Made by a program: the position numbers and the translations under genes. A stretch of 63,543 nucleotides of DNA, filler included, from Basidioascus undulatus (lineage: Eukaryota), in assembly GCA_000826855.1 (NCBI GenBank). It is 7 parts of 7 records of this genome, joined end to end, with 100 filler letters (N's around TTAATTAATTAA, not from the genome) between each part and the next. Parts side by side here need not be neighbours in the genome. Positions count along the whole stretch, not along the records: positions 1 to 6,049 come from JTLS01001818.1; positions 6,150 to 12,185 come from JTLS01001819.1; positions 12,286 to 39,046 come from JTLS01000182.1; positions 39,147 to 45,172 come from JTLS01001820.1; positions 45,273 to 51,297 come from JTLS01001821.1; positions 51,398 to 57,420 come from JTLS01001822.1; positions 57,521 to 63,543 come from JTLS01001823.1. One strand, 5' to 3'. How positions within the stretch are numbered: position 1 is the stretch's first letter; every line of letters starts with the position of its first letter. Positions 2,890-63,543 of this stretch are shown here, in pieces. The notes below the pieces were generated by a model. It was not told the origin of the DNA. It saw only the letters and a program-made list of their open reading frames with translations, and did not search any database.

Positions 2890-4050
2890 CCGTGCACGCT
2901 GCGCTGCGCACTTCCCGCCGACTTCTCACCCACTCCATACCCCCGTACATTTCGACCATCAACCGTAAAAAAAGTCGCTCCTTTCACTCTCTTCGCCGTC
3001 CAAGATGCCGCTTTCTGGCACCGTTTCCACAATCCCGACCGTCGTGCGAGTGTCACGTTGAAGTGCCGCGGCGCAGGTAACCCCTCTGTGCTGTCTCCTC
3101 GACCGATCTTATACTGACCCAACTCCTACCTTCCCTTTATCTCATAGATTAGAAATAGCCAAGCCCCTCACATAAAGCATCTATCTCTGGGATAGAGAGC
3201 TCGTCAAAGCAAATGTGCGCCCCATTTCGGTCCCACTTCCTTCCACTTGGCACACAACTCATCTGCGACTCCGACCGCATCGACAGGTTTCCTATTAGTG
3301 AACCTCTCACTACTCGTTTCACGGATCTGTCCGGGTCCCGAGGAGGACAATCCAAAACTCCGCCCCGCCCTGGGCCCAGCGTAATACGTGGCATCCCGTG
3401 CAACTGCGCGTCTGTAAGGTCTTGGTCTACCTCTTTGTCTGGGAAACACAGCCAGCTTTGTGGGGGTGGAGGGCGGAGAGGTGGGATGCGGCTGCTCGGG
3501 GCGAGTAGGGTCCGGCTTGCAATGTCATCTCGGGTGTGCATGTTGCCAAAGCAGGGATTGTTCCGCTGCAAGCCATTGTCTGCGAGATACTTCGACCATA
3601 ATTAAGTTGAGACCTATGAAAGTCTCCACATTTCACATGGAGGACTTCACGAAGTGGCCTTTTCACGACGTCGCTCTCAATCGGATCCTCTACCATCCGC
3701 TTCGGCTGTACGGCGTAAAGACGAAAACTGCTTGATTGCATATGAACACTCTTCACTTTACGCACGGAAATGATCTTTTTCTGCAAGGAGGTACAGCTCA
3801 GAGCATGGATCGGCGATTCAGAGTAACGCCAGTAGTCCGTCTGATATGAGGCCCAAAATAACGAAGTCAGTAGTGTGTCTGCGACGAGCGAGCTGCCGGA
3901 AGCCATCGACTCCTAAAAGGCATCCATCAAAAGGGTTCGCTTGGATCTGTTGGAAGTGGTTAAGGGGTGCATGCTTAAAATAAATTGACAAGCGGACCGA
4001 GCTGACTGCTTGCGCCTCCTCGAGGCTCGACATTAGGGTGTGGTGCTCTG
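2890..4050 (+). pseudogene. Degenerate F-box-like/LRR-type gene
   Basis: LPAD/LLTHSI N-terminal motif across a frameshift; intron gtaacc..ctgac..catag (3077-3147); then EIAKPLT*SIYL, resembling the 'IA.PLLY..I.L' segment after fungal F-boxes. Many stops downstream. Confidence 0.4.
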
Positions 4051-4309
4051 TACCCTCAATCTAATATTCTTACTTCCTATGGTATAGGATGCGCTACGGT
4101 ATCTGCTCAAATACAGCCGGCGACGCACTGCTTCGAATCCCGCCTTGCTGACGCAGCCCAGATGCGCTGGAGCTCGCACAGTCCCACCTCAGGCTGCTGC
4201 ACATAGAAATACAGGCATGCACTGCGCCTACAATGGCGACGAAAGTAAGCACTGCCGTACCCATTACTGACAAACCATGGAGCCCCCCATCTCCCTCATC
4301 GCCTCCTTC

Positions 4310-5929
4310 TCACTGCTCCACCGGCGTCGGGATATTCCTTTCAGGATACCTACCCCCCACCCCTCCCACATCAGCGCCCAATCCCTTCCGCCGTTTTCCG
4401 TCCGACTCACCGTTCCTGCATCCGCCGCGCCAAATCAGGCTCGTACACCCTGTCCTCGCCGAGCTGGTTCCCGAGCGTCAGCCAGCCGGGGCGCGTGTTG
4501 TGCTTGCGGCCGAAGAGTTCTGCGGTGCCTCACCGAAGTTAGCCTGCATTGAAGAGGATGGCGAAGGCGACGGTGTGGAAGGAGGGGAAGAAGGGGAAGG
4601 AGAGCGAGAGCGAGAGCGAGACGCACCGATCTTCCGCCCGCCGGGACAACACCGCTCGATGATCCCGTACACCTCGTCCGGCTTCCTGCTCGTCTCTCTC
4701 ACTGTCCGCACCCCACAGCCAGAACCTCACCCGCTCAGCCTCCAGCTCTTCCTTACCAGTCATTGCAGGAAACGCACCCTCGCTGACGACGACGTCCACG
4801 TCCATTCCGCGATTGAGCCACTCAGGCCAGCGCACGGCGCCCGTCGGGCCCGTCTTGATCCCCACGAGGCAGTGCTCCTTCGTGTGGTTCAGCCAGTGCC
4901 CGGTGCGCCCTGTCCGGATCAGGCGCTGGAGCTGGTCTGTCCCGCCCCACCTCGGGGTAAGTAGCATGCTTCCCTCACTCCCCTCTTCCAGCACGACACA
5001 GAACGCAACTGATTTTGAGCCAGGCGATCTCGTCGATCTGCGGTTGGCAGGGGGAGGGGGAGTCCGTAAGCAGGTAAGGGAGAGAAGGAGGGAGAAAGAG
5101 GAAAGGAGAGTAACCCACCCGCTTGTACCCCCAAATTGCCATGCACTCCCTACCCAGTTCCAGCGCGCGCCCCGTGACCCACAGAAAAAGCAGCCCGCCC
5201 TCGTCCGAGAGCGCGGGGATCGGCATACCGCGCATCTCGTCATCGGTCATCTGCCCAGCTCCCCAAGATCAGTTTCGAACCAGAGGGAGAGAGAAGAGCG
5301 GAGGCAGGAGGGAATCGAGGAAGGGAGACGGACCGTTCCGTAGGGCAGCTTCCGGGAAGCGGGTGAGCGAGGAGAAGATGGGTTGGGAGGAGAGAGGAGA
5401 GAGGAGAGAGGAGAGAGGAGAGAGGAGGAAGGGGCGACGAACAGACATGTGGATATCCCAGGGCGGGTCGGCGACGATTACTTGGAATCTGTCAAGCTGA
5501 CGATTGAGTACAGTGCGTGCAGGGCAGGATTACACCAAGCGAAGGGAAGACGCACTTCCCAAGCACGGAATAATCGAACCTCCTCAAATCACAATTAATA
5601 AACTGTCCCCTCCCACCTCATCAGCCCCCACAAACTCTCACCAAAAACAACCCAGAACATTGCAAGGAAAGGAGAGGGAAGGAGGGGGGACACACCTGCC
5701 CTACAGCGTACTGGTTCGTCGCAAAGTGCAGTACAGCCTGCGCCATGTCCTCGTCCCTTCCGGGCCGGCCCGCAGGGATGCCCTTCTTCGCGCCGTAGTC
5801 CCCCCCGGCCGGGATCTCGGACTTCTGGTTGGGCTGCTCGATCCCAAATTTCTCACATCAGGTACCTTCCTTCCCCCAAATAGGAAAGGGGGAGACGGAC
5901 CTTGGTGTCGTCGGGGGAGGTAGTCATCT
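4310..5929 (-). CDS. IME4: MT-A70 family mRNA N6-adenosine methyltransferase, METTL3/IME4 catalytic subunit (5'-truncated by contig end)
   Basis: Exons encode [29 protein letters not shown] (catalytic DPPW), [95 protein letters not shown]. Stop TGA at 4310-4312. Confidence 0.95.
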
Positions 5930-6048: not shown

Positions 6049-6049
6049 T

Positions 6050-13741: not shown

Positions 13742-15050
13742 ATGGCCTTGAGCCCCTCCTCCCGCGCTCCACTTGATCCACAGCCACATCTTCACGTACG
13801 CAACGGACTCTGCCGTAGACGACGCGTTCAAGCCGGACACTGAGGAGGCGGCGCGGACGAGGCGGAGCCTGCCACTGGTGTGCCGCGAATGGAGGGCGAG
13901 TCTCCCACACAACCTTCCCACGACCAGCAACTGACGGAGCATGAACATCTTTCTATCAGGCCCTCGTCTACTGGCGCATCACCTTCGGTGACCGCGCCTC
14001 CTGGACGCAGCTTCGCCAGCCAGGCGTCTTCCCCGGGCAGCGGACCAAACCTCGACTCCCTCGCCTCCGCGGGCTCCTCCCTCCCTTCAGAGATGCGGTC
14101 CCTCGCGCTCTAGCCCACGGGGTCGTACGACCTCCTCTCTTCCGTTTCCGCAGTATGCCGGATCCTCTCCCAGAATCTCCAGGCGCTCGCGTGCGCGGCG
14201 GACCTGAGCGCCGCGCTGTGGCTGCCCGTGCTCGTGCACTCGGCCGCATCCTCATCTCCTTCCGAGATCGTCCTCAACAGCAAGTACATCTCCCCCGCCG
14301 TGATCGGCACCTCAACAAGCTCCCCAACCTCATGCACCTCCGCGCGACGGAGTACCCCACCTCTGGCGGCTCGTTCCCGGCCACGTCCGGCACCCTCGCC
14401 TCGCTCCCACCGCTCCCGCTCCTCAAGCTTAAGAGCCTCGAGGTTGTCCCCGAGGACGCACACTACGTCGGGAGTCCCAAGAAGTTCATGCACGCGGTCG
14501 CACACGCGTCCTTCCCCGCGCTCGAGCACTTCGCTCTCCAAGCCGACGATGATTGGGCGGCCGACGGCGCCGCGCAGCTCGCTGGTGTCGGGCGCGCGCT
14601 CAAATCGCGCGAGCCACACCCAAAGATGTCGCGATCGACAACCTCACCAACCTCGCGCCCCCGCTCAAGGATCTCACGTTCTTTTTCCCCCTCACGCGGG
14701 ACGGGCGGCACGACCCCACGCTCCCGCGCCGGTTGCGCCACCCGACGCGGCGCAGGCTCCACCCATCTTGTCGACAACTTGACCCGCACGGACGTCCCGC
14801 GCCTCGAGCGTGCAGTTTGAACCCCGCCCTACCTACCGTTTGGGGATCTCCTGGAAGGTGGTGGATCTCGAGCCGTGGTGCGGGGAGATCGACGAGGATG
14901 CGGATCTGTGGCGGTGGGCCATTGAGAGGGCGATCGAGCTGGATGGGATGGGCATTGCCTGCCTCGACTGGAAGGGGGAGACGTTCGGGGGGCTGGGAGG
15001 GCGAGCGCGAGCGCTTGGGTCGGGACAGACGCGGACCGCGGATCGAACAC
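13742..15050 (+). pseudogene. F-box-like/LRR gene with multiple frameshifts
   Basis: LHLIHSHIFTYA..RRSLPLVCREWR (F-box-like) is out of frame with the ATG; GC-AG intron; LRR-like LNKLPNLMHL, LKSLEV, FPALEHFAL and PRLERAV lie in different frames; C-terminal WAIERAIELDGMGIACLDWKG. Confidence 0.65.
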
Positions 15051-15089: not shown

Positions 15090-15596
15090 ATGCTTTTCTA
15101 TTTGCTGTTGTACGCGAGATTTCTGTGCCAGATGATCATAGAACGTGCGTTGTGGAGCCTGTCGCTCGGGTGCTCGAGGCTCATCATCAAAATCCAGCTC
15201 ATTCATCCCGGACACTCTCAACGACCATCTGCCCGTCTGCCAGCGCGGGGAATCGTCCATGTAGAGGCGCCGCAAGCCACACATAAGTGATAAAAGATCC
15301 TGTGCTTAACGATGGTTGAGGGCAAAGACGCGGTATGTCGTCCGAAACTAGTGAGTCAGAGCGAGTAGTTCCGGTTTCGTCTGAGCGGTGTTTGCGAGCC
15401 TCATGCACTGATTGCGACTTGAAAGGTTGATAGAACAACAGAGCAGCGGCCTTGTGAGAGTGTTGAAGGAGCGTGAGACGAGGCAGAGCGACGCCAGAGT
15501 GGCCGAGTCCCGGGTGTACGCGAGAGGGTGCGAGAGAGCGCCGACCTCGGCGAAGATGAGCGCGTGGATCTCAGGGAAGAGATGCGAAAGGACCGT
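15090..15596 (-). pseudogene. F-box-like family paralogue A
   Basis: VLSHLFPEIHALIFAEVGALSHPLAYTRDSATLASLCLVSRSFNTLTRPLL; start codon reads ACG where B and D have ATG; downstream frameshift and stop. Confidence 0.75.
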
Positions 15597-16487: not shown

Positions 16488-17252
16488 CTACTCCGCCAGC
16501 TCCTGCAGCGTTTCATGGACGATGTGATCAACGAATGCTCTGTGCTTGGCAGTCGACATGACGAGCACTTTGGCTTGGAGAGCCTAAGGTAACCCATTTT
16601 GCGTCATGGAGAAGAAAGCGCTATCGCTGTAGCCTCGGGAAGGGCCATCGAAGCCGAGAATGAGTTTGCGCAGCGCTCGCGCTCCAGTCAGGAAGCGCGA
16701 GATGCCGATGAGATATCTTGGGAATCCGTGGCGAAACAAACAGCGACGTGAGAGAGGAAAGGTATGCCGAGAAGGAAGTCTACCTCATGGGCCAGATGGA
16801 AAGAGATGTGCCACACCACAAGGCGCTTGCCTGTCTGCAGGAGAGATGTGGGTAACACCCCAATATAATGGCAAGGGAATGAGACTTCTTCCAGAACGAG
16901 GGAAGGGCGGTCCTCACGTGGGGCTTGTCATAGAGAGTCGCTGAAAATTGCACATCCTAGGGAAGAGAACGTCCTGAAGGTAATAAATGATGTTCTTCGC
17001 ACGGAACGAGCGAGTCACAGCGAGCAGGTGCGGTTTGGTTCGAGCGGTGTTCGCAAGCTTCGCTACCTGAGCGATTCCCGAGATATTAATCGACTCATAG
17101 AGCAGAGGAGCTGCGAGCGCATTGAACGGGCGTGATACGAGGCAGAGGGACGACAGGGCGGCGTAGTCTGTGGTGTAGGGAGCGGGTGCGAACGAGCGCC
17201 GGCCTCGGCGATGACAAGCGCGTGAATCTGGGGAAGGAAACCATAGGACCAT
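16488..17252 (-). pseudogene. F-box-like family paralogue B
   Basis: MVL/FLPQIHALVIAEAGARSHP/YTTDYAALSSLCLVSRPFNALAAPLLYESINI..ANTARTKPHLLAVTRS; frameshifts and internal stops; 3' end homologous to paralogue D. Confidence 0.75.
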
Positions 17253-17805: not shown

Positions 17806-19274
17806 TCAACGCCTCCATGTTTGCATCGGCTCTTTGGCCTTCCCCTCTTCCTCCAGCACGATGCCCTCCACCTTGTCCTCCCCACCCGTCGCTTCCGCGC
17901 TGTCCCCTTTCGCCGTAGCATCCACCTGCATCGCTTCCGGGCGATCGTCGGCCGCTGGACTCGGTACGAACGGGACGTCCCGGAACAGCCGGTCGCGGTA
18001 GTACTTGAGCTCGTCAATGGAGGAGAGGATGTCGTCCAGCGCTCTGAGAAGAAGGAAAGGCCAGACCTCAGTGAGATGTCGGAAGACAGAGAGATGCAAG
18101 GCCAACGCACCGATGTGAGGATTCAGTCTGACCGGACTGCCGCGCTCGCGACGGCAAATCGGGGTACCACCGCCTCGCAAGTTCCTTGATCGTCGATACG
18201 TCTGAACGCGCCCGCCGTCCCATTAGCCTCATTCCCCGCTCGCGCTATCCAATGAGCCGACGCACCGACGATCCGATAATGCAGCCACTCCGCAATGTCC
18301 TTCCACCCGTCCGCATTGACGTCTCTCTCCATGAAGCGCTTGTCGACGTGCACGCTCGATCCTGCCAAAACACCCGCGCGGCGCTCGGGAATCCAGCGCT
18401 TGACGTAGCGCAGGACTTCTTGTGCGCAGTGCGCCGGGCTATGCGGGGAGGCGAGACAGGCGCGCGTGAGGCCGGAGATGCCGTGCTGGCGCGTGCACCA
18501 GGGGCCCATTCTGCAAATAAGAATGGATCGGAATTGAGCTCAGACCATGAGATGGGAGGATGGGCATTGAGAGAGACGTTCGCGTCCAAGACAGATTTGG
18601 ACGTTTGGACGATCAGGTTCAGGCCGGCGTCCACCGGTTGCAGCTTTCCGTCAGTGATCTAAACATCGCAAAACAAAATGAGCCACACGATGAGCATGGT
18701 TTTAGAGAGCGGTGAGGGAAGGGTTCGTACGATGACCGCGATCTCGATGATCCTGTCCGAGTCGATCTCGAGACCCGTGAGCTCGAGGTCGATCCAGACC
18801 TTCACTCCCAACGCGAAATGAGGATCCAGAACGATCAAGAAAAGGGAGAGAGGTAACGGACGAGGGGGCCATCCGAAGCCTTGAGCGGAGAAGAACGAGT
18901 GAGGCTGGCGGCGGTGGTAGGACTGGTTGAGGAGGTGACGCCGGCCGCTGCCGTTTGAGCCTGATGTCCCCTCGGGCGCGACTCAGCAAGCTCCCAAGTA
19001 TTAGACTTCCATTGGAAAGACTCACCGCAGCCCCATTTGAACCCTGACTCGTCCCCACCTTCCCAGCAGAGCCTCCAGCGCTCCCCATACCTGGCGTCCA
19101 CCCCGCGCGCTTCGCCACCGCCTTCCTCTTCTTCGCGGACGTCTTGGACTTCTTCGACATGAGTTGAATATACGACCACAGAGAGGAGTTTCGAGTTAGG
19201 CAGGGGGCGATAGTAGGGCTGAGGACAGGTAAAGGCGAGCGTGGGATGAGCCGGAGCCGCAGGCGAGGAGGCAT
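17806..19274 (-). CDS. REX2: Oligoribonuclease (DEDDh 3'-5' exonuclease, REX2/Orn)
   Basis: [98 protein letters not shown]. Confidence 0.95.
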
Positions 19275-20679: not shown

Positions 20680-21745
20680 AGATAAACACAGTATGTAACT
20701 TCCCAGGGTGAAACGTTGTCACACGGTGACGCAGAGCCGCGTGTAACCGCATTAAAGTGTTCATGTACACAGAAACCCGTCTGCTACAGCTGCATGATAC
20801 AATCCTTCATTATGCAAAAAAGTCCTTGTAGCCCTTCACTCACCCGCAAGCCCCCAGACCGTTCCGTCCCTAATGCGATCATAGAAATGATGATGGATGC
20901 AGAGCAGTGCGATTTTTTCCAAACTGCGAGGGGCTCAAGTGCGCATGACAATTCTGGGTGAATCGATCGAGGTAATCCTGCGTCGCTGCCCTAGCCTCCT
21001 CGTGGCTATGGTCTGAAGAGTCGACTAGAACAAGACAGTGATTCTCTTGAGAGTCTTGACTGCTTGGAGAAAGTTTCTGAGACATTGTACATAGCTACTG
21101 TAGTCGTAGCCGGGTTCCCACCAGGGACATAAGAGAGGAAAAAGGACAGCTTTGTGCATCGGATGTGTGCACCCATAGCTAGGGAAGAGTCGAATTCGAT
21201 ATATCCAACCGCTAGGTGGGTAAGAGGTAAGCCGCTGGCGCGTGATCGGATAGGAAGCGCTCGAAATAATCAAAGCCAGATCCTCCAAAAAAGCATGCTT
21301 CCACGACGTTTGAGGCATGAATACTCCAGGGGAACCTGTCGGTTGCTAAACGCTCGAGGTTTGGTGCGTAAATCTCGATGTTCTCGGAGAATTTAGGGCA
21401 CTTTGTCGCAAAGTCCGGATGACCGGAGCGAAAATACGCCATGTTGTTTGAGACGACTCCCAGTTCACGCAGGCAAACCGACTGGGTGAGCGGACGAAGG
21501 TGAGGCCACGCTTGGATGGCGGTGTAGAAGCGGAGGAAGCGACACAGTTCGCCTTCTGTAGACAAGGGCAAAAGGTAGATATGGGCGTAAAGAATGGCAG
21601 TCGCATGACGGTTGAAGTCCTTGGAGACAAGGCACAGCGAAGCCAGCGTAGCCGAGTCGGAGGTGTGAGCGCGAGGGTGAGGCGGCGCGGCCACCTCGTC
21701 AACAATGAGCTTCAGAACATCGAGGGGGAGCCTGGGAGCAAACAT
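20680..21745 (-). pseudogene. F-box-like family paralogue C (more divergent)
   Basis: MFAPRLPLDVLKLIVDEVAAPPHPRAHTSDSATLASLCLVSKDFNRHATAILYAHIYL..APNLERL; in-frame stops from 21212 interrupt the LRR-like continuation (LPT*RLDISNSTLP*). Confidence 0.7.
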
Positions 21746-22308: not shown

Positions 22309-23093
22309 ATGGTCCTTCCTCGCCTCTTCCCCGAGATCCACGCGCTCATCATCGCGGAGGCCGGCGCGCCCTCGCACCCCCTCGCTCGGCCACCCTCGCG
22401 TCGCTCTGTCTTGTGTCGCGCTCTTTTAACGCGGTGGCAACCCGGCTACTCTACGAAGTCAATCACCGAGCCAACCGTGCTGATTTCGAAGCTCATCAAC
22501 ATCACGAAAACGAAACCGTACCTTCTTGCTCTCACTCGCTCGCTCCTCTTAGATGGCTCGGACTACGCTTCCCAGCCTGAGTATGGCGTTCTTCTTTCGG
22601 GCATGACGAGTCTGCGACGCCTCTACATGTACCCAGACCCGCCGCGATCACGGCCTCTCGCTCGCTCTGGAAGAGTGCTGCTTCCCCGACTATACTTTTG
22701 ACAAAATAGTCAAGTATGTGTCGGAATGTCAAACGCCTTATGGTGCTCAATATCGATTTCTCTCGTAGGCGAGAGGTGAACGTGCTCGTCGGACTGCCCT
22801 GTCTCACCACGTTGCTGTTTTTTTCAGCGACGTGTACCACCAGCCTCATCTCAACGGCCTTTCGCGGTTACTTAGTAGGGCGCCTGCGTTGTGCAGGCTC
22901 ATTATAAACTTCAATGACGATAAGGTGGTTGACAAGGGATATGGCCCGCTGGATTTTTGCGCCATGACAAGAAACGCGTTGCCCGAAGCTGGCCGAGTCA
23001 AGGTGATCGTCCGGGTGGACGACGAAAGGAACGGACTGCCATTTGATCGATGTGGGGATCGTCAATGGAATGCTGTGGGAGATCGAGGAGTAG
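22309..23093 (+). pseudogene. F-box-like family paralogue D
   Basis: MVLPRLFPEIHALIIAEAGAPSHPL/SATLASLCLVSRSFNAVATRLLYEVN/KTKPYLLALTRS..MTSLRRLYM/CRNVKRL..LPCLTTL/APALCRLII; several frameshifts. Confidence 0.78.
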
Positions 23094-23525: not shown

Positions 23526-26500
23526 ATGGGCCGCCCCGCCCGGCCCCTCATCCTCCTCCTCGCCCTCCTCGCTGCGTGCGCGCTGTCTGCGCTCGCCCAC
23601 CAGCAGAGGGTATTGAAGACCAGTCCTGGTGGGAGAGCGGGCAGGGTACCGGGGGAACCTGCTGATAAGAAGAATGGTACGCTGCTTCCTTCCTGTGTGC
23701 TGGCCGGTCCGCGAGGCTGCCGGTCCGCGAGGCTGACCGCCTTTACCCACAGACGACCCATCTCAGGAGCCCCCTTCCGAACGTGAGCTTTCGACAGGTT
23801 ACTCTGCCTGAATTTGTGTTCCTCAATGCTCATAATTTCAAACCCTCCCAGCAACTCCCCTCTCCCTCGCGCTCTCCCTCCTCACCCAGCTCTCGCACGC
23901 CCCCTCCCCGCCCTCCAATCCCCAACCAGCGCTCTACGTCCCGCCTTCGCCTCTGACGCCTCTTGAAGCGGCGATCGACTATATCCGCCCGTCCTGGCTC
24001 AAGGTCCCCTCCGCCGCGGGGGGCTCCAAACGCGAGAGCTGGGCCGAGCGACGGGCCGGGCGCGTGCTCGAGCTGCTTGAGCGCGCTGTGGCCAAAGGAG
24101 GCGAGGAGGCGGAGGAGGCAAGGGGGGTTTGGGCGGATTTGATGCTGGTGCGTTTTTTACTTGAAATGAATGTTGGAGTGCGAAAGGGCTGACGAGGGAG
24201 AGGTGCGGGGATGACAGCGAGCCCCACCGCCGTTCAAGCAGAACGCGACCAGGGCGTTCGAGCTTTACTCGGACCTCGCGTCGAGGACAGGGAACGCGAC
24301 CGCCCACGCTGCGCTCGGGTTCTTCTACGACACTGGCTACGGTGGGGCGGTCGAGCCGCATCCTGGAACGGTGTGTCTTCTTTCCCTTTCCGCTCTTCCC
24401 TTCCCTCTTTGGTCTTCCTGTCCTGGTTCTGATAAAAGGAGATCGGCATACGGATTAGGCACTCCTGCATTATATCTTCGCCGCGCTGGGCGGTGACACC
24501 GGCGCCGAGATGACGCTCGCGTACAAGCACTGGGTGGGCATCGGCGCTGAGCAGGACTGCGAGGAAGCGTTGGGGTGGTACCAGCGCGTGGCGGACAAGG
24601 GTGGGTCCATTCCTCCATTTCCCCCTCCCTTCTCCTTCCGTGCCTTTCCACCCTTCTCCGACCGCTCATCTGAATTAATGGGGGATTGATAGCGATGGCG
24701 CACTACCACGCCGGCCCACCTGGCGGGCAACGCCTGCCGCTCACCAAGACGCGCCTGTCCGATCTTGCAGGCGGTGCGTACGGCCGGGGAGCGAGCGTCG
24801 CGAGTACGGGCAATAACGTCATTCGGCCGGCGATCAAGGCTGGCCGCGCGAAGGAGGCGGGCGAGAGCTGGGACGAGCTGCTGTGCGTTTGGGTCTCCCT
24901 TGCGTTTCACCTTTTGCTTCCCCGCCACGACGTAATCCGCCAGGCTTCGTCTTTCTGCGGTTGCCACAATGTGCTTCAAGCGGGTACTGACGTGAGCGAC
25001 GACCACAGCGAGTTCTTCTCCTACTCCGCCTTCCAGAACGAGCACGCCTACGCGCTCCGCCTCGGGCGGATCCACTACCTCGGCTCGATCTACCCGCTGC
25101 CCTCCAACCAAGCCGACGGTGCCGGCGAGGTCCCGCGGAACTACGCGAAGGCGCTCTTCTGGTTCCGGCGCGTCGCGCGCCTCGTCTGGGGCGAGGACGC
25201 GCGGCGGAAGGAGGTCGACCCGGGCGTGGAGCAGCTTGCGGGCATGGCCGCAGGGTATCTGGGGCGGATGTGGATGAGGGGCGAGGGCGTCAGGGAGGAT
25301 ATGGAGAGGGCGAGGATGTGGGCGGAGAGGGGGGCGGAGCTGGTGCGTCGCTTCTTTTTCGTGTTTGTTAGGGGAGGGGAGGTGCTGATGGAGCTGGGAC
25401 GCGGAACAGGGCGACCCGGAAAGCCACTTCCTCCTCGGCCTGATGCTCCGCGACGGGCTCGGCGTCCAGCCCAACTTCCAGAAGGCCGTCGCGCACTTCC
25501 AGACGGCGGCGCAGCACCACCACCCAGAAGCGTACATTGAGCTCGGGAAGATCTACGCCGGTGCGTTGCCCCTCCTACCCGTGCCTTGCCCCCACTGGCT
25601 AACGGTTGAGTTTGTGCCGCGCTCAGCAAACGGCGACACCGCCCGCGCAACGCAGCACTTCGAGTACGCCGTCGCATCCGGCAACGCGTTCGAGGCGTAC
25701 TACCACCTCGCGTCCTCCGTCTCGCGCACATCGTGCCCCGCGGCTGTCGCCTACCTCAAGCTCGTCGCCGAGCGTGGGGACTGGACGCACGCTGCGCCTG
25801 AATGGCGCGATGCGCAGATCCGCTGGGCCCGCGCGGCCGAGTGGGGCGACGAGAAGGGCCGTGGGGAGCGCGAGGGCGCGCTACTGGGGTGGTGGAGGTT
25901 GGCCGAGAGGGGTTACGAGGTGGCACAGAACAATGTGGCGTTCGTGCTGGATCAGGGTGCGTTCCGTTCTCCCCCCACTCCTTACATTTTGCTGCTTCGG
26001 ATATGTCGAGCTTCCACGGCTCACGGAGTTCGATACCACAGACAAGCAGCGCATCCGCCTCCCGCACCTCGACCCCGCACCGTCGAACAGCTCTGCCGCG
26101 CTCGCGCTCACGCACTGGGCGCGCTCGGCCGAGCAGCACCAGATCGACTCGTCCGTTAAGGAGGGCGACTACTACTTCTACGGCCTCGGCACGCCCGACG
26201 GCAAGCCCGACTACCAGCGCGCTGCCCAGATTTACTTGGGCGCTGCCGAGACACACGTCAGCGCGCTCGCGCTATGGAACGTCGGGTGGATGTACGAGAG
26301 GGGCTTGGGTGTGCCGCAGGTGCGTTGCGGGCCGGGATTCCTCTATCATCTCGTTTTCGTGCTAAACAGGGATTGGGCCGCACAGGACTTCCACCTGGCC
26401 AAGAGGTACTTCGACATGGCGCTCGACACGGATGAGGAAGCCCTCGTTCCCGTCGTCCTCTCCCTCATCGAGCTTCATCTCCGCAGCCTTTGGGCGCGCC

Positions 26501-26898
26501 TCACAGGCCAGAACGAAAAGGCGCTCTCCATCTTCGGGCCGTCGCGCGCGCACCACCAGCGCTCCTCCTCCTCCTCCCACGACGACCGTCCCGCGCCCGC
26601 CCCGAAAGCAGAGGACGACGTCGAAGAACGTCGTCCCCCGCGAAAGAACCGGCACACGGACGACTGGGCGCCGGAAGCGGACCTGTACGCGGACGCGTGG
26701 GGCGACGCGGGCGACGCGGACGCGGACCTAGACGATGAACTCGTGGAGAGCGCGCTGATTCTTGCGCTCGCGGGTGCGCTCGCCGCGCTGGTCTGGGTTA
26801 GGGGAGTGGTGGTGAGGAGAAGGAGGGAGGAGGCGGAAGCGCGGGTGAGAGGGGAGAGGAGAGAAGGGGAAGGGGAGGGGCGCGGTGCAGGGCAATGA
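23526..26898 (+). CDS. HRD3: HRD3/SEL1L ERAD substrate adaptor (Sel1-like repeats)
   Basis: Signal peptide; [120 protein letters not shown]; C-terminal TM helix. Confidence 0.93.
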
Positions 26899-42096: not shown

Positions 42097-42740
42097 TTTG
42101 AAAGTGGGTGCAGGGCGAGGACGTGAGACTATTCAGAGAAGCCCGCTGGAGGAAGCCGGTTGAGAAAACGGAGGCTTGACCGAGGAGAACCATGGGCGGA
42201 AGATGGGGACGGCAATTTGATTTCTTTTGATAGTTTGGAACGGTATTCATGTGAACTCAAGCTATCTGTGTACAGTCATGGGCACGACTTTGATCTCAAC
42301 GTGCTAAGCGCAATCTGAGGAAAGCACAATCTGAGAGAAGCAGCGTAAGTACTTCAGACTGGCACTGGACCAGCTCAGTCAATGGATTTGATGTCCAAAA
42401 GAGCACGTGTTGCACCCAGGTAGAAAACCCGAGGAAAGAGAGAAGCGGCACGAGGTACGGCCTCGTCGAGTGCACTGACGTGCACTTTGGCTCTTCGTTG
42501 AGTCAGCTTGTTTATGAAGGTGGTTCTTTGTGCTGTACATGCTTCACTGCAGAGGGACTCAAGGATGCGAAGAACGGGCGCAACCGGTACGCGAAGTACG
42601 CCTGAAAAACATACCAGATGCGGTACGTCCGTGGACCTCCCTGCTGCTGCTCCCTCAAACGCTCCACAACGCTCCTTGTATTCTCTCCTCCATCCCCTCA
42701 CCGTCTTTCCGCTCAGCACATAACTAACACTCTCGCCAGC

Positions 42741-43900
42741 ATGCTCTTCATCTTCCGCCCGAGATGCTCACCCACATCTTCGAATTCGCAACGGCTGAAC
42801 GCGAGGACTGGTATGATGAGATCACAACGAAGTCAACGCACCGCACGCATGCTTGTCTGCAAAGAGTGGACCGTGAGTCCTTTCATTTTTTTCCTGATTC
42901 TCCTCAGCGGACTTTTGGAGACCGTGATTCAAATCTCTGCAGTGCCTCGCGCGGCCTTGCCTTTAACGCTACATTGTCATCGATGACTCACAGCATCTGC
43001 GTTGAATCGCATCTATCCTCTCGACTTCGCATTTTCGAGGCTTCCGACCAGGACTTCTCAAGCACTATCTTCACATTTTAATCGAAGGCCGCACCGGCAG
43101 CGCTGAGCTGATTGGGCGTTCTGCGTCTTCTGTCCGCGGCTCACGGTCCTCAGCCTCGACACTCCCCCCAGAACAAGACTTCCGCCTTTTGCGCTGGTCA
43201 CTATCAAGACTGCACTGTGCACCACCGTCCGTGCTCTGCGTGGAGTCAATCTGAGCAACCTCGACTTGCGCAAATAGTCTCCTTTCTCAACTCTTTCGAA
43301 CTTCTCGAAGAACTGGAGGTCATCCTTGGCACATCACAGGACTCGGACGAGGTTCCTGAACCTTTCAATCTGCCGCGCCTCACAACCCTCACGCCCAGGT
43401 TCAGCTCGTCCGCGACACCTTTCTTCGTATCCTTGCGGCTTCAAGTCTGTTCCGCTTTCGTCTCCGCTATAGCCATGATGAACGTTCCAACCCTGCTTCT
43501 CAGGCTGTAATTCATTGTTTTGGCAGTCAGTTGCAGCGCCTCTGCTTCCTGTGCAACGCCTTTGACCTCATTCCCGTTCTCGCCCAAACCTGCGCTCACC
43601 TGTCATCATTCAGGACAAACGCCTGCGAGCTCACGCGCGACTCGAGATTAATCACTCAAATTGTAAGTGCTGGAGATCGAAGAGATTGAAGGACTACATT
43701 TCGAAGCGGTTTCAGCGGTCTTCGACGCCTTCGATCGGCGCCGTCTCCCCAAGCTCACCACTGTCATACTGAGCGAGTACGATTTGACAACCCGGATGAC
43801 ACCGGACCGGTGCGCATGCTTACTGGCTTGCCCGCATGAGCATATTACTGGGTCGGAAGAGCATCGAGATTTGTGACGGCGAGGGACATGTAATGGGGAT
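42741..43900 (+). pseudogene. F-box-like/LRR pseudogene
   Basis: LPPEMLTHIFEFA/MLVCKEWT; intron; RPCL*RYIVI; FELLEELEV; LPRLTTL; LPKLTTVIL; stops and frameshifts. Confidence 0.7.
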
Positions 43901-45272: not shown

Positions 45273-45760
45273 GCTCAGCGCCTGAAGCAGCTGCATGAAC
45301 CGGGGGAAGCCAGCTTCCCCCTCCGGCGCTCTAGGAGCGTCTGGGAGAGCGCTACGACATCAGGCGGAAGGAGCTCCGGCCGGAGGAGGGACGTGAAGAT
45401 CCGGAATGGGGTGAGTTTATCGGTCGACGTGGGCCGGAAGGCCGTAGCATGCACCGGGAGCCCAGCGACAGAGAGGTCGTAGTACGCCACATGGTCCATT
45501 CCGAGCACTTCGAACAAGCGCGTGAGAAGCCGCAGCTCTTCAGGCGTCCCCACCCGGATGGCACCATGTCGCTCGAGGGACAGGCGCGCCTGTTCGGACG
45601 CGGAGAGGAGCGCGTAGGAGGGGGTGGAGAGGTTGATCTGGTGCACGAGGGAGAGGAGGGAGCCGTATAGCAGCACTTCGGTGCGGTACATTGAGGAGAG
45701 GGAGGAGACGAAGGTCGCTCGGAGGGAAGACGCGGGGAGCAGGGGCGCGGAAGATGACAT
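45273..45760 (-). CDS. 2-oxoadipate dioxygenase/decarboxylase HglS/YdcJ (DUF1338)-like, N-terminal part
   Basis: LRATFVSSLSSMYRTEV.LYG, RLSLERHGAIRVGTPEEL, LGM..VAYYDLSVAGLPVHATAFRP, PFRIFTSLLRPELL; no intron in the visible part. Confidence 0.9.
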
Positions 45761-46653
45761 GGTGATCAGTGTGTTGAAGGGTTAGTGGACGAGTACGGGG
45801 CTATACGTTCCACTGCGTCGACGGGAAGGTGGACTGAGAGTGGGGAAGAAATTTGAAAGAGGGCGACGAGGCTCGATGAGCGAGTTATCAATGTGAGTGC
45901 ATACGGCCCTGGGCAGCGTGCCTCCGACAAGGAGTCGGATAAGCGTTGCAAGCGCTTGACTCGGTTGGCAGTGACACCCATCTGGGACTGTACATATGCC
46001 GAGAACCCCAGTGCTCAAATGTTGAGCTGCTATGCGTCGGTTAACGAAGAAAGAGGGCTGCACGAAGCACGCGCTCGGAGAGACGGTGAACGTTGAAGAG
46101 AATAGAAGCTGGGTCTGCCTTCTTTTCCGTTCCTTGAGCTCGGGCCTGATTGGGAATAGCTAGATTTAGGTCCTGCTCTTCATGTCTCTTTGTTGCATTG
46201 AAGGAGTCCAAGGAACCAGAATGTCAAATGCGAAGACCTTCCACGGGACATCTTGTGAGGGCAGTCCTTTCTTGCGTTCGGTTTCCGTACGTAACAGGCC
46301 GTCCTCGCGCCTGCAACCTGCGTCGACCACGCTGTACCAAGCGACAAGCACATGCTGGAACAATACGAAAGAGAATAGCATAGATACCATAGTACAACGA
46401 CGTGGTATGAGCGGAAAGAGACGGCAGAACAGCGAAGCTACAAGAGTGTGTGCGTGGAGAAGGCGTGACGGGGCGTGTACAGTTCCTGGTATGCGATGCG
46501 GGTACAGAGGGTCCAGCGGGAGTGAACGGGGCATGTGAGGTAGAGAATGAGACTCTGTGCGATGCGATGAGGGCGGAAAGGTCCTGCACGAGCTCCCGCA
46601 AGTGAGCCTCTGCGATCAAACGTCCGAAAGCAGGACGGCTGGCTCACCTTGCC

Positions 46654-47925: not shown

Positions 47926-50900
47926 TCAGAACCCCCTCGCGCCCGACCCAAGCGTAGGCGTGACCGGATCCTCCACGCTCCGTCGCCTCCCATCCAGCTC
48001 GCCGTCCCCAAACTCCATCTCCGCGTACTCTCTCTCCCAAGGCGGTTTCCCCGCCTGCCCCTGCCCCTGCCCAGCCTTGAGCGTGCTCTTCCTCCCGAGC
48101 GCCCGTCGCCCGATGCATCCGGTGCCCGAGCTGTTCACGGCCTTCTCCAGCCTTCGCTGCAGCCCACGGCCGTCGTACCCCTTCGCGCCGTCCAGACTCG
48201 CGAGGACGTCGTCGGGGACCTCCGGCTCGGGACGCGGCGCGGAGAGTGAGAGGAACGAGCGGTCGGTCGTCCATGATGCGCGGGAGGAGGGGCGCGATGA
48301 GGGAGGGGAGGAGGGCGCGCCTGAGGGCGTGGAGGAGGGCGCGCGCGAGGAGCGCGGGGGACGGAAGAGTGCGTCGCCCATACCCGAGCGGGCGACGAGG
48401 AGGTCCGCGTCGGTCGGGAGCGAGAAGGGGAGCATGAACCTGCGCCACGCTCCCATACACAGTCAGCTCTCCTCTCGAACGAGGACCGCCAGAACGCACC
48501 GACTGTCCAGCAGCTCACCAGCGGGCTCAGGTCCCCTAGGCGGCACCCAATCCGCCGGACTCCGCTCCGTGTCAAACAGCGGGTCGATCCCGTTCTCCGC
48601 CTCCTCCTCTGCGCGCTCGCCCTCCGCGCCTTCTCTCGCCCCGCCTCGCCCGTTGAGCTCCCCGCTCCGGAGCTCCCACATCTGCGCGACCTGCACGAGG
48701 TACTCGACGCACTCGGTCGCCATCTTCGGCTCCGCAACGGGCGCAGCCTCGTACCGGTAGTCGCGCTGCGCGCGGCGCAGCTGGAGCGGGTTGAGCGCTC
48801 GGAGCGTTTGGGTCGTGGCGATTAGATTGGAGAAGTCGGATAGGGTGGAGAGGCACTGTGGCTCAAGATATTAGCGGCCTAATGTGAGGAAGACGATAAA
48901 GCCGAAGACGCACGGTGAGCCATTGCAGGAGCTGCGACAGCGGGGCGAAGTGCGCGGACACAACAGCGGTCGGTAATCGGTGCATCTTGGCCTGCCACCC
49001 ATCCGCGTCCAGCATCAGTACCCCGCCAACAACTTTCGCCTTGCGAACGACGTACCCAGTCCTCCAGCGTCGACACATTCAGCCGGATCTGCATCGCCCG
49101 GCTCCGGCAGAGGTACTTCTTTCGCATCAGCACGCGGTTGAAGAGCTCGCAGCCGACCCAGTAGAAGATCTGCGCGAGTGCCCAGGTCCCCCAGTCTTCA
49201 GTATCGCTATCCCCATCTCGCGCTAGGCCAGGACGAAAGGAAGAGGAGACGAAGGGGAGGCAGAGGATGGCGCCCGCACCTGCGAGAAAGTTTGGACCAC
49301 GATCCCCGGGTTGATATCATACAGCTGCAGCACGAGCAACGTAGCGCTCAGGACGTCCGTAATGCCCTTCGGATCCGGGGCCGTCTCGATGACCGCTCCT
49401 CCTCCTTCCTCCTCCCCCTGGGGCAGATCCACCATGCTCTGCGGTCTCCTCTGCTCCGCCCCCGCTGCCGCGGCGGCCTGCTGCCCGGGGGGTACGAACA
49501 GATCGGAGAGAATTGCGGAGGCCGGGCGCGCGGGGACGGGGTTGGAGTACTTCCGCGAGGAGACGGAGCGCTGAGAGGAGCGCGTGGACTTCGTGAGCGC
49601 GCGCATCAGGCGCCACTCGCCGTCGAAGCGGATGTCGTCGAACTCGGGGAGGGGGGAGTGGTCGAGGAGGGCGGGGTCGAGGGCTCTGGTTGCGGAGAGG
49701 GAGAAGGTGGTCAACAAAGGCTGGAAAAAGGGTGGGGGCCAAGGGGGTGGAAGACGGACTTGTCAATCTTCTTTTCTGCTACGCGGATGATGAACACTGA
49801 TGCGCTCATCTAAGCATCAGCGCGCCGAGAAAAGACGGAAAGAGGGCGAAAGGCGCACCGTAGATCTCGTTAATCAAATCCTCGAGCATGTCCTGCATCT
49901 CGCCCGCTGTCGCCTCGCGTAGGCCGACGTCCGCGCGGAGGAAGAAGAGCCACAGCGTGATGTTGTGCAGCCAGTACGCGAGTAGTGGGAGGTTATCAGG
50001 ATTTGCCTGTGCGCCCTCCGCTCGTCCTCAGCCGTCTGCACTCCAACGCAACGCAACGCAAACGCACGCACCATGACGGCCTCCTCGATCCTTTCCACCG
50101 CCCCGTCAAACACCTCCCCCGCCATCTCGCCCTCCGCGTCGCCGAAGTAGTGCGCGTACCGTATCCAGAGGAAGAGCGCGCTCGCGGGCGTCGAGCGACG
50201 CGTGCGGGGCGCGCGCACGGGCGGGAGGGCGATGAGGTGCGTGAGCAGCTGGGGCAGCTCGGAGGGCGAGAAGGCGAGCATCTGGTGTGGGAGGCAGAGG
50301 GTGTAGAGGAAGGGCTGGGGAGGCTGCGAGGGGTGGAAATTGAGATGGGGGAGGAGGGGGTGAAAGGGGTATGAGAGAAGGACGAACCTCGTCGGAGTCG
50401 TCCGCGTCGTCGGACGGGGAGAGGGACGAGGAGGGATCCGCATCGCCCTCGGGGTCGTCCGTGTCTCGCAAGAGCTTCCAGTCAAACTCCATCAGCCTCG
50501 CAGAGTCCCACATCGCCCTCTCCCGCTTCTCCGTCCTTTCTCGCCTCTTCCTCTCCTGCCTGACTCCCCGGCCTCCACTGGGCTTTACCGTGCCTCCCTC
50601 CGTGACGACGAGCCCCTCACTCCACTTCATCGTCCCCTGCGAGCCGAAGCCCGACCCCGCGCCGGCCCCGAAGCCCTTGAGCGGGCTGCTCCCGACTGAC
50701 GCGCACGCCTCCTCCTCGGCGGATTCGAGCAACTCGCCGACGCCCGCCCGCGCGGCGGGGATCGCAGACGGGGACGCGACGAGGTCCTTGGGTGTGCGAC
50801 CGAGGCGGGAGCGGGTGAGGGGGGAGGCGCCGATGGAGAGGAGGTGGGTGACGATCTTGGGGGAGGAGGGGTGCGTGGAGAGAGAGGACCAGTGGAGGGG

Positions 50901-51297
50901 CGTCCAGCCCTCTGATTTCACCCATCAGAAAAAAAAATCAGCTCAACTGGGTAGGGGGTGGAGGGGACAGGAGGGCAGACTGACGGGCATCCTGCGACTC
51001 GACATCCGCACCAGCATCGACCAGTCTCCTCACGCCTTCTTCCCACCCGAGCGCAGAAGCAAGCACCAACGGGGTGCTGCCCTCCTCGTCCCTGCATTCA
51101 AGGTCGACCCACTCACGCCCGGGCGGGCCGAGCACGACATCGAGCAGCTCGTTGCTCAGGCTCGACACGGCCTGGAGGAGTGTGCGGTCGGCGAGGGTCT
51201 GCTTTGCGCCCGGGGGGAGGTCGGAGGAGGGGTCGAGGAGCGGGAGGACGTCGGAGGGTGAGGGGAGGGGCGGGAGGAGTGGCAAGACGGGGCAGCC
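47926..51297 (-). CDS. Ankyrin-repeat + dilute (DIL) domain protein (5'-truncated)
   Basis: Ankyrins RDEEGSTPLVLASALGWEEGVRRLVDAGADV and GWTPLHWS..LLSIGASP; DIL region LAYWLHN, VQTFSQ-IFYWVGCELFNRVLMRKKYLCRSRAMQIRLNVSTLEDW, LSQLLQWL, LNPLQLRRAQRDYRYE. Confidence 0.9.
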
Positions 51298-51397: not shown

Positions 51398-51789
51398 CCC
51401 GCCCCGACGCCGGATCGACCACTACGTGATGAACCTCCCCGGCTCGGCGCTCGAGTTCCTCGACGCGTTCCGGGACGCATACGCCCCTGGCTCCGAGGCG
51501 GAGGACGGCGAGCCCCGGCCGATGGTGCACGTGCACTGCTTCTCGCGCGAGCTGGAGCCGGAGAAGATGGAGAAGGACGTGTGCGAGGTACGCTGCGCTG
51601 GGATGTTGGGTGTCGTTGAGATGGTTGCTGATGGTTGTGGTGGTGCCATGCCCGCAGCGTGCGACGACATACCTCGGCGCACCCGTCACGCCCGATATGG
51701 ACGGCTTCAACCTCCATCTCGTACGCTCTGTCGCGCCGAACAAGAATATGGCGTGCCTCTCCTTTAGACTGCCGGAGTTCTCGGCGTAG
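51398..51789 (+). CDS. TRM5: tRNA (guanine-N1)-methyltransferase, C-terminal exons
   Basis: IDHYVMNLPGSALEFLDAF, PMVHVHCFSR, LHLVRSVAPNKNMACLSFRLP. Confidence 0.93.
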
Positions 51790-57520: not shown

Positions 57521-58581
57521 CATTCGACACCAGGGTTCTGTGCGTTGCTCAGCGAACGCAAGAGCTTCTTTCGGGCGGGCGTGCTAGAGGCTGATGCTTT
57601 CTTATGGTCATTCACAGTGTCGAAGGCCTTCTGGGTAACGGTGCATGGTTGGCAATTTCCGAGAATGCCCATATGTCCAGGCGAGACGCTGACATACATT
57701 TCTCGCAGCCGTCGGCCATCAACTTGTGACCTGTTCGCCGGTTGAATACACAACCATCCAACCGCCTTCCGGCCAGACGTGCGCAGCCTTCATGGAGCTG
57801 TACATTGCGATGGCGGGGCGGGTACGTCAGGGCAACCCGCACGCCACGGAGGCGTGCAAGTTCTGCAGCTCTCGAACGACGGACCAGTTCATGTGAGATT
57901 AGGCTTCCCCATCCCCCTCACCCACTTCCCAATTCACTCCTTTTAACTAAACACTACGAGGCGCCGGCAGGACACAATTCTCGGTCGAGTAGGCGCATCG
58001 GTGTCGGAACATCGGGATCCTTGTTGCCTATTAGGTGAGGGTGTCGTTTTCCGCCGAGTTCTGTCCAGAGGCGAACAAGGGGTAGGCTCACAATGTGCGC
58101 CCTCATCTTCAGGCGTTCAATGTGTTGATCCTACTCGGCAGCACCTGGCTCTTCCGCGTCCGCGGTATCAGTGGGTTGATCCCGACAAGGCTCGGAAAGA
58201 AGGCCTAAGCAGAGCGTCCGAGTCGACGGGGAACGTATGAGGCGCGGAGGCTGCTGCGGCACTCGTCCTTCAGACACCGTCGTTCGAAGGTTCGTGGCGA
58301 TTATAGTCCGTCTTTGATAACTGTATCCTGCATTGGTTGTTTGTTTGGGTTGTGGTGGTTGGAACATAGATGAACACACCGTCGTTAGGTATTCAACTCT
58401 CTCTCTCTTACTCTCTCTCTCTTTTATTTATTTACCTTTCTTCGGGCGCCCGTACTTACTGACCCGATGATTACGTAAATCATTGACATTTAGTGCTGTG
58501 ACTTTTAATTGAGGCGTGGCTATCGCTTGCAAATCGACTCGAAGGCGAAGTCTTTCTATGGCCTAGCCATGACAGCCTGCG

Positions 58582-60308
58582 TTGGCGGAGCGGGAGGCTA
58601 TCAAGCCGACGGAGCAAGCGCTGATCACCGAAAACGTCCAACGGCAAGTGCTTGATGCTCTCGGCGTGGATAATACGGCAGTCGAGACTGTTCTTCCTTT
58701 TCTACCTGTACGTACTGCTTTCCCGGTGCTCCAACGGGTGAAATCTCATGGTCGTTATTTGCAGGGCCAACGCCATCATCTCGCCGCTTGGCTCAGAGTG
58801 CGGCCGCACATTCTATGAGCCGCCGTTTGTCTGTGCACACTGCAGTCCATGACCTCCTGTGTCCCTCGCCTCATGCCATATCCTTTTCTCCGTTCCCAGA
58901 CTGATCGTCCGCACCGTTCGATCCTGAACGTTTCGCCTCCGCCTGGCGCTTGCTTCGACAACGCCACAGCATCCTCCGCACGGCATTCGCAGCGGTCTCG
59001 CCGTCTGATGTCATGCAAGTTGTTTTCAAGGAATCCCAGACGATGATCCGACCTGGGAGTTCATCGAGTTGGATGGCTCGTTCGAGGACAAGGTCATCCA
59101 GCAAGTCCGCCTCGAGGCAAGCCGTCCGTCCGACATGTTCTCGCCACCCATCCGTGTCGGCTGACAAGACGCTTTCATCCTTGTTATCCACCACGTTCTT
59201 TATGGTGTGTTTGAACTATCTTCTTGCTAAAGATACCGCTAACTCATTCCCCTCATTCTGCCTCAGACGCGTTGTCCATCCCCCTGCTCATCTCGGATCT
59301 TTGCGCACTTCATGAGCAACAGGCATGCGATAGCTTTCCCGCCTTCTCCGACCTTGTCCAGCACATCTTCTTTGTCCGCAATACCGACGCCGACCGGAAG
59401 TACTGGCTGAAAGCGCTCTCGGGCGCGCAGCCCACCCTCCTTTCCCCTGCTCCTTCGGCCTCACGTCCAACCTCGCCTGCTCCTCCAACACCTTCCTCTT
59501 CCGCAGCGCCATCTCACAAGCCTCTTCGCTTTCCATCGCGACCGTTCAATTCAACCTTGCACTCCCCTCCGTCATTCTCGCAGCGCTCGGCCGGCTCTTC
59601 GCTACCTTCGCCGGCGCGGCCGATCCCGTCTTCGGTCTCTTCCAGACCGGGCCCTCTTCGTCGTTTGACGGTATTGAGGCTGTGGCGGGACCCACGCTCA
59701 ACGTCTTGCCGCTCCGTGTGAGAGCTCCCGGTGCCGGTGAGATGAGAGAGGTGGCGGCGGAGGTGCAGGCCGACTTGAGACCGAGCTGCGCACGAGCAGG
59801 TTAGCTTGCGCGAGGTTGGCGAGTGGATTGTTGCCGAAGACCAGTCGCTCTTCAATACGCATGTCAACTTGCTGTGGCATCTGATCGGATCCGCGAGGTG
59901 GAGTGGCAGCTGCTGGAGCGTAGGTCGATGTACACGTCCGTCTTTCTTCATTGCGCTCATGCCACCTGCCTGCAGCTTGGCGTTCCCACTGACTTCTCAC
60001 CGAAGGAACCCGTAGGCGGGGTTACCGCGGTTGACGCCCTTGATCGCGCTTATCTGCCAAAGGTTGGTCTTGCGTTTCCGTTGGATTACGTCTCGATTGA
60101 CTCGTCTTCAGTCTGCTCACGTTTATTTATTCGCAATGCTCAATGCTTTTAGACATCCATGAACATTGACGTCGCGCTCAACGTTGAGATAAACGCCATC
60201 GACATTGCCATACGCTGCGAAGGGCCGCTTTTGGACCAGGAGGACGTGCGCAAGTTTATCCAGGACTTTGCGGAGGTGGTGCAGAGCGCAGTGAACGAGT
60301 TGGCATGA
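58582..60308 (+). pseudogene. Terminal condensation domain of a siderophore-type NRPS, frameshifted fragment
   Basis: VETVLPFLP-GQRHHLAAWL; AWRL/LRQRHSILRTAF; ILVIHHVLY-DALSIPLLISDL (HHxxxD); YWLKALSG; PVFGLFQTG..GPTLNVLPLRV; LFNTHVNLLWH; many frameshifts and stops. Confidence 0.85.
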
Positions 60309-62424: not shown

Positions 62425-62862
62425 TTTATGGGGGGAAGACAGATAGGACAAGACGTCGCGGGAGTCGCTCTGAAGTCCACTGCACACAGGCTCTTCGGGT
62501 TGATAAATTGCGGGCCTATGACATGAGTAACAATGAATTTCATACAAGCCAGAAGGCAATTCTATGCCTGGTTGTCACGGCCAGAAGCCCAGGTGCGTGC
62601 AGAGCGCCTTGTCATACACCTCTTACCAAAAACAACAACACCGTTTGATACCCTGCAAACCCTCTAATTATCCACACCGGAAACCAGGGCAACTGAGCCT
62701 GGTAAATTATCCACAGATCTTTCTGGAAACGGGGTAAGGGTGTATCGCAGATATTAAAAGTGGGAGCGTGCAACGGGGACGCGTGCTTGTCGCGCGTTCG
62801 CGTCTTCCCTCTCTTGACCACCGACCGCAACGTATTCCTTACTGCCAAAAATCTGGATCATC

Positions 62863-63543
62863 ATGCCCACCGCAACCTCCGATATTTTTCCCCTCCACTC
62901 AGCCTTTTCTCAAGCGCAGGCCCAGTACGCCGAGCGTAGTCCAAAGTCGCTTGCAGCTTTTCAGGCAGCCAGCGAGAGCCTCCCGGGCGGCAGTACGCGT
63001 TCTTCGATCTTTGTCCATCCTTTCCCACTCTTTGTCCAAGCGAGAAGCGGGAGCACTTTGACGGACCTTGACGGGCACCATTATACCGATTTGTGAGCCT
63101 CAAGTGCACTACTCGTGCCGCTGAGGATTGGCTGACGGGGCTTTGTTTTGTGCAGCGTCGGGAGTCCGTCATAGACAGTTCGTCACACCCGGTAGTGGGT
63201 ACCATACTGTACTACTACCCGGCGGGGACTTCACTTCCGGCGTAGGCCACTCCTTCGCCTCATTAACAATGACAAATGCTTACCAAACTTAAATATCACC
63301 TCTATCAGATTTATGGTAACGAACCCGATAATCCGCAAAGCGATAATTGAGGCTCTCCACGCTGGCATTCAAGTACTTACACGCACCTTTGGATTCATCG
63401 TATTTTCCGCTAACGGCAACGTAATGCTCACAGCTCGGAGCTCACACCTCCGACGAAGCTCGCTTGCCGTCGCTGCTTCGACAACGTTTCCCCTCCATCG
63501 AATCATCCGTTTCGCCAATTTCGGAACCGAAGCCAAGGTGCTC
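62863..63543 (+). pseudogene. Class-III PLP aminotransferase (GSA 2,1-aminomutase-like), frameshifted and 3'-truncated
   Basis: LPGGSTRSSIFVHPFPLFV..GSTLTDLDGHHYTDF; GDFTSG; YG/NPIIRKAI; LGAHT..RFPSIE/IRFANFGTEAK (consensus RF.NSGTEAN); 1-nt frameshifts at about 63319 and 63505. Confidence 0.8.

Follow-up and report, generated by a model that had tools for sequence, protein, structure and literature searches.

We analysed a 63,543-nucleotide stretch of the Basidioascus undulatus genome (hereafter the window), which consists of seven contigs joined end to end from a parent assembly of 32.1 Mb and 2,992 contigs (G+C content 57%). The window carries broken copies of a large family of F-box/leucine-rich repeat (LRR) genes, and the reading that we favour, with a probability of roughly 60%, is that they record the collapse of one dispensable F-box/LRR repertoire in a free-living, Wallemia-related basidiomycete, in which births of new copies stopped, selection lapsed and core genes were kept. 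A preliminary description of the window had proposed ongoing genome reduction in a host-dependent basidiomycete, with accessory genes broken beside intact core genes; its observations were confirmed in part, and its interpretation was likewise supported in part.

A search with the family copy at 15.6 kb of the window gave 107 matches at approximately 103 places in the genome, 90 of which were examined together with two more family loci in the window. Lesions were found in 81 of the 90 copies, comprising 175 frameshifts and 67 stops (242 lesions in 21,546 codons). Among the remaining nine, four aligned over a short part only and five were full-length without a lesion call (L014, L097, L109, L151 and L153), leaving at most five whole copies in 90; the high third-position G+C content typical of working genes was seen only in L151 and L153. 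A profile built from outside homologues alone returned 56 of 61 copies as broken and the same five as whole. The family genes are intronless, and their surroundings had a G+C content of 0.55, compared with 0.62 around helicase genes. Whole relatives of 270–350 residues were present in Tulasnella, Pluteus, Infundibulicybe and metagenomes (297 hits). Several members of other F-box groups in the genome were broken as well (L232, L240, L237 and L253), and core F-box genes, which we take to be Met30-like and Cdc4-like, lay in GC-rich open frames.

The predicted architecture of the family is an F-box-like start followed by LRRs, with a modelled fold nearest to the substrate receptors of Skp1–cullin–F-box (SCF) ubiquitin ligases. 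The Pfam F-box-like model matched 31 of 67 aligned members weakly at E ≤0.1 (best 7.5e-07) and the whole copies of this genome at E 0.36 or not at all, and the family profile matched many LRR chains. Folding from the 67 sequences gave repeated strand-helix units with a predicted local distance difference test (pLDDT) score of 83; a prediction from four sequences was unusable (pLDDT 37). The closest structures in the PDB were MAX2, FBXL3, SKP2 and TIR1 (E about 0.0005–0.003). Conserved motifs were H-P-x-A-Y within the F-box and, terminally, G-T-L-W. The copies may have been SCF adaptors delivering a range of proteins, some perhaps foreign, to the proteasome, with putative binding to Skp1.

Lesions were called with an aligner written for this analysis, which compares a profile with DNA while allowing introns, frameshifts and stops; a lesion was counted only if 12 bits of alignment lay on each side, and a control in which 74 intact homologues (18,572 codons) were back-translated produced one false lesion. 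We exclude sequencing or assembly error as the general source of the lesions: two DNA runs and a spliced run agree with the assembly, and few frameshifts adjoin homopolymers. Between positions 14500 and 34400, contigs of DNA runs X1 and X2 (depth approximately 54 and 17) agreed with the window with zero to two letter changes and no gaps, supporting the indels there at the level of contigs. A third run, X3, is identified as RNA-type because its contigs skip introns of REX2 and HRD3, two core genes in the window; its contig at 15194-15698 was identical to the window, including both stops of the broken family copy that it covers. Runs of five or more equal bases adjoined only 10 of the 175 family frameshifts (background 2%). 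The contrary explanation, that the lesions are sequencing or assembly errors or introns misread as frameshifts, gains something from the assembly being fragmented, based on short reads and marked by an adapter remnant, and from the possibility that X1 or X2 is its own source, the comparison having been made by contigs, from which rare variants are dropped. Set against the agreement of two DNA runs of different depth with one spliced run, the independence of lesions from homopolymers, the use of only six introns across 90 copies by an aligner that permits them, and a lesion rate more than 100-fold lower in helicases, it is scarcely credible, and the view of the preliminary description that the lesions are not sequencing errors was borne out.

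The decay is not general but centres on one dispensable, intronless F-box/LRR repertoire. Among the best-scoring helicase candidates (26 loci) a single lesion was called in 11,292 codons, against 242 in 21,546 codons for the family, and this lone call lies at an edge and reads as an intron. Aldehyde dehydrogenases gave one doubtful call in 4,202 codons (9 of 10 loci without a call) and sugar transporters none in 2,686 codons (7 loci), both sets being the best-scoring loci (13 were scored out of 84 candidates for the former and 9 out of 192 for the latter). There were four calls in 5,336 codons of aldo-keto reductases (19 of 23 loci without a call) and seven in 5,999 codons of cytochromes P450, confined to six of 26 loci, with two more loci aligning partly; some of the P450 calls may be missed introns. 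The lytic polysaccharide monooxygenases of family AA9 gave two calls in 3,445 codons (15 of 17 loci without a call). These approximately 17 AA9 loci (L255-L279) are a large set of plant-wall oxidases for a relative of Wallemia. An ab initio decay model, for which 82 intact genes and simulated decay of the same genes served as calibration, was applied to 20 random contigs (150,097 bases, about 41 gene models) and estimated that about 4–10% of their conventional coding sequence is dead. The figure is rough and takes no account of genes with low codon bias, such as the F-box/LRR family; the window was richer in dead genes than these contigs. An all-against-all comparison of 696,610 bases of genome loci revealed no further large family. 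The earlier claim that core genes were spared stands, helicases and the control genes in the window being clean. The claim that accessory genes were broken is correct for expanded F-box/LRR groups and for single genes here and there, and does not extend to accessory metabolism in general, in which the P450, AA9, aldehyde dehydrogenase, aldo-keto reductase and transporter genes were mostly intact.

The same comparison bears on the lifestyle of the fungus. The DBP7 helicase of the genome matched Agaricomycotina at 56–63% identity in a homologue search (120 hits), and in a quick single-gene tree of 43 rows picked from these hits, with no outgroup and a long Wallemia branch, its sister was Wallemia mellicola (98% support in the Shimodaira–Hasegawa-like approximate likelihood ratio test; 67% identity, the highest found). 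B. undulatus is a basidiomycete, as first described, and this one gene tree groups it with Wallemia, whose genomes are small and AT-richer; its own size and 57% G+C content make it unlikely to be a Wallemia itself. It probably belongs to the class Geminibasidiomycetes (Wallemiomycotina). These are portrayed, in the available part of one account, as xerotolerant, partly heat-resistant soil fungi that grow in malt-broth culture and are presumably saprobic (PMC4500085); the words pseudogene, frameshift and F-box do not occur in its main text. Ongoing genome reduction in a host-dependent fungus would account for the loss of single-copy metabolic genes (HglS and a non-ribosomal peptide synthetase (NRPS) remnant, below) and for the many dead genes within the window. 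It sits badly with a 32 Mb genome, with growth of the class in plain culture (PMC4500085, in the same available part), with the dead share of about 4–10% in random contigs, and with plant-wall-degrading and metabolic families that show no general loss, the AA9, aldehyde dehydrogenase, aldo-keto reductase and sugar transporter loci being largely free of calls, as were 20 of the 26 P450 loci. We consider it very improbable; host dependence is not supported, and the candidate class is described as soil-dwelling and culturable.

How and when the family decayed was addressed from the divergence of its copies. The closest pair among 79 copies differed at 23% of sites, with a synonymous divergence (dS) of 0.43, and the median distance to the nearest neighbour was 41%, although near-identical copies might have been collapsed in a short-read assembly. 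Close pairs had ratios of nonsynonymous to synonymous divergence (dN/dS) of about 0.4–0.7 and almost no lesions in common. The copies are thus old, were functional for most of their history and were broken singly later, as the distant pairs, the dN/dS values and the private lesions indicate. Lesion counts in 70 full-length copies had a mean of 3.0 and a variance of 2.6, a distribution fitted better by one age than by spread ages, and all six subclades averaged 2.3–3.8 lesions. A single synchronous death, as the Poisson fit would suggest, was weakened as a candidate by a simulation of the lesion caller, which under-calls and plateaus at three to four lesions. Once this behaviour of the caller was built into the fit and the two copies that are probably live were set aside, zero or one lesion was seen in 10 of 68 copies, compared with the 25–45% predicted by steady loss up to the present (p 0.03 to <0.001); one episode, a broad old window of loss, and a closed pool decaying to 3–10% survivors fitted alike. 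The cautious interpretation is that new copies ceased to arise and the existing pool then dwindled; one sudden event of family death is possible. Most of the decay is estimated to have taken place 0.04–0.08 substitutions per site ago, with a poorly bounded upper age. Freshly broken copies being scarce, the term "ongoing" in the preliminary description is doubtful. Dinucleotide ratios were the same in dead and live copies, the lesions were mostly indels and the copies were far from identical, a combination that does not carry the signature of repeat-induced point mutation.

No special event would be needed if this fast-evolving family were simply undergoing steady birth-and-death (genomic drift), as F-box families do in plants and nematodes. 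Plant F-box pseudogene numbers follow family size in the excerpted text of PMC3030570, and unstable nematode F-box genes turn over fast in that of PMC8665587; moreover, our caller flattens spreads of age. Steady turnover nevertheless needs many live copies, where at most five of 90 are whole, and young duplicates, where the closest pair is 23% apart, and it needs more copies with zero or one lesion than the few observed. Of the hallmarks of birth-and-death, many frameshift and stop pseudogenes were found (81 of 90 copies), and recent duplicates and a live pool were not. We judge this explanation unlikely, while still giving it some weight.

Loss of a shared hub, be it a regulator common to the family or a Skp1 or cullin paralog dedicated to it, would make all members die together. 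Such a joint death would fit the similar decay across all subclades and the broken state of the other F-box groups beside core F-box genes in GC-rich open frames. One lost SCF part leaves unexplained the dead HglS gene, the two dead kinase copies, the NRPS and some of the P450s, and transcription persists in at least one of the dead copies; this alternative appears distinctly improbable.

Under the favoured reading, the collapse of a dispensable repertoire, intronless F-box/LRR proteins would have expanded to approximately 100 copies, as adaptors each of presumably small benefit. Duplication then halted, as the absence of close pairs shows, purifying selection would have lapsed on nearly all copies, and each decayed by its own indels and stops, as the lesions show. 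The same lapse may have trimmed marginal genes, namely the other F-box groups, HglS, both kinase copies, the NRPS and a minority of P450s, while selection would have persisted on core genes and most feeding enzymes. The cause might have been that an ecological pressure met by the adaptors disappeared, or that the effective population size fell so far that genes of slight use became neutral. More tentatively, and in our view doubtfully, a surveillance-like repertoire of about 100 F-box/LRR copies and the marginal genes could have been lost in one datable episode of relaxed selection in a free-living soil fungus, as a fossil of a shift in lifestyle or population size and perhaps an early step on the way to the compact genome of its sister lineage Wallemia. 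Several considerations weigh against the collapse as we read it. The SCF/Skp1 role of the family is predicted from its architecture; the plateau of the caller means that the Poisson shape is no proof of a single moment of death; and the rejection of steady loss weakens to p 0.03 when the detection filter is left out. The choice of best-scoring loci for aldehyde dehydrogenases and sugar transporters and the small sample of 20 contigs temper the contrast with other genes, placement beside Wallemia comes from one quick tree of DBP7 with its long branch and missing outgroup, and the cause of the collapse cannot be read from one genome.

Five family copies were identified in the window by alignment. 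The copy at 15108..15593 (- strand) has two stops and has lost its C-terminal part; in spite of this it is still covered by the RNA-type contig at 15194-15698, with the stops unchanged. Three further copies, whose sequence is matched by the DNA-run contigs, lie at 16491..17227 (-; three frameshifts and one stop, with contigs free of gaps), 20839..21745 (-; four frameshifts; a search for outside homologues with this copy gave no match) and 22309..23090 (+; six frameshift calls, one of them a 13-base deletion between short repeats). A distant copy at 36296..37196 (+) has one frameshift, called with the outside profile only; the genome's own family profile reads an intron at this site. Of the other F-box genes, that at 32768..33414 (+) has a stop at 32972, a frameshift at 33323 and a lost end, and its paralog on contig C2133 is an open frame. 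An F-box/LRR-like gene of another group at 13742..15000 (+; TAG at 14111 and two frameshift calls) was judged by the ab initio model and inspection only, and an F-box-like gene at 42740..43900 (+; weak F-box-like match, E 0.068) by inspection, its frames shifting along its length. At 3152..3912 (-) there are open-frame pieces of no recognised family, which the F-box/LRR profile did not match, and searches of 2890-3912 with family profiles, Pfam and Atlas were also blank. Of the broken F-box/LRR genes described earlier, the one in this stretch was not confirmed.

In the tetratricopeptide repeat (TPR) gene at 34487..35577 (+), inspection shows two or more changes of frame that lack splice signals; an outside homologue search gave no match, and the Pfam TPR_17 match of this gene is weak (E 0.16). 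An APH-type kinase at 37456..38597 (-), initially called PsiK-like, has in-frame deletions of approximately 14 and 7 residues, one of them over the catalytic-loop position, and its only paralog (C1112) is broken by two frameshifts and a stop. The first half of a single HglS gene lies at 45273..45762 (-) and its second half on C2528, where three frameshifts were called; the frameshift reported earlier within the window, approximately 40 bases from the contig end, was not called by the aligner. The half gene in the window is about 52% identical to bacterial proteins. A broken NRPS was recovered as a condensation-domain remnant split over frames at 58560..60130 (+). The stretch read earlier as an aminotransferase (57521..57900, -) matched no family in PDB, Pfam (stops read as X) or plasmid searches, and that assignment was not confirmed. 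A gene-like stretch at 28960-29529 (+) with an apparent frame change mid-way could be placed in no family. Repeat-rich or decayed coding-like stretches at 53358-53912, 61000-62500, 8200-9100 and 19500-20250 are possibly transposon remnants; the last three gave no Pfam match with stops read through.

The neighbouring core genes, which had been described as clean, were without a valid lesion. REX2 (oligoribonuclease; 17806..19160, -) reads through with six RNA-supported introns. One of these (18511-18581, -) has GA-AG ends, a non-canonical donor backed by an RNA-type contig joint and an open frame. HRD3/Sel1 (23526..26898, +) had no lesion call. In IME4/MT-A70 (4313..5529, -), which a contig end cuts, no valid lesion was seen around the single suspect junction, and the frameshift that the ab initio model had called proved to be a missed intron. 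No lesion was called in the modelled parts of an ankyrin and dilute-domain gene (47929..51297, -), nor in the end of a gene at 51398..51789 (+), which has no Pfam hit and which we take from its motifs to be TRM5-like. Elsewhere, the contig end at 6030-6049 resembles what we presume to be an Illumina adapter remnant, making contig ends unreliable. ARAGORN placed a tRNA-Cys with the unusual anticodon ACA at 20480-20558; a pseudogene or an incorrectly read intron may explain the call. Two loci outside the ribosomal DNA contig, L002 (C952) and L003 (C1704), gave weak 5.8S rRNA-like matches (41.7 and 34.9 bits) and are possibly decayed copies.

A nearly all-dead family beside whole relatives amounts to a natural knockout, which allows a test of adaptor function, and we know of no job assigned to F-box expansions in basidiomycetes. 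The dead family would also permit a test of niche change against drift, and from its dated neutral sequences the spectrum of indels and substitutions in an early-branching basidiomycete could be estimated directly. Ordinary annotation would overlook such loci. Our literature search, with subscription papers and supplements outside its scope, found no paper on Basidioascus pseudogenes, on mass pseudogenization in fungi or on such an F-box/LRR collapse.

In obligate symbionts and biotrophs, genome erosion leaves pseudogenes among dispensable genes and spares the core. Here, by contrast, plant-wall oxidases, transporters and most metabolic families were kept and decay was concentrated in one regulatory family, a caution that pseudogene-rich windows do not imply parasitism. 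Like SKP2, FBXL3, MAX2 (D3) and TIR1, its nearest folds in the PDB, the family combines F-box-like helices with subsequent LRRs; unlike them it is shorter (approximately 270–300 residues), intronless and equipped with its own H-P-x-A-Y and G-T-L-W motifs. Closest in evolutionary behaviour is the plant FBX superfamily, for which the excerpted text of Hua et al. (2011, PMC3030570) describes birth-and-death and genomic drift, with lineage-specific genes under relaxed selection, frameshift and stop pseudogenes, and, in Arabidopsis lyrata, at least 370 F-box pseudogenes (total given as 1350). Relaxed selection, many pseudogenes and the sparing of conserved F-box genes are common to both, but in the plants described there pseudogenes are a minority beside live, recent duplicates, whereas here about nine in ten copies have died and young duplicates were not seen. 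The unstable F-box genes of Caenorhabditis form species-specific expansions with a proposed role, in the excerpted text of PMC8665587, in recognising foreign proteins; an immune role for the family described here would be by analogy only. Those nematode families, as presented there, are still turning over and the present one is nearly exhausted, and its near-total collapse is a variant of F-box birth-and-death.

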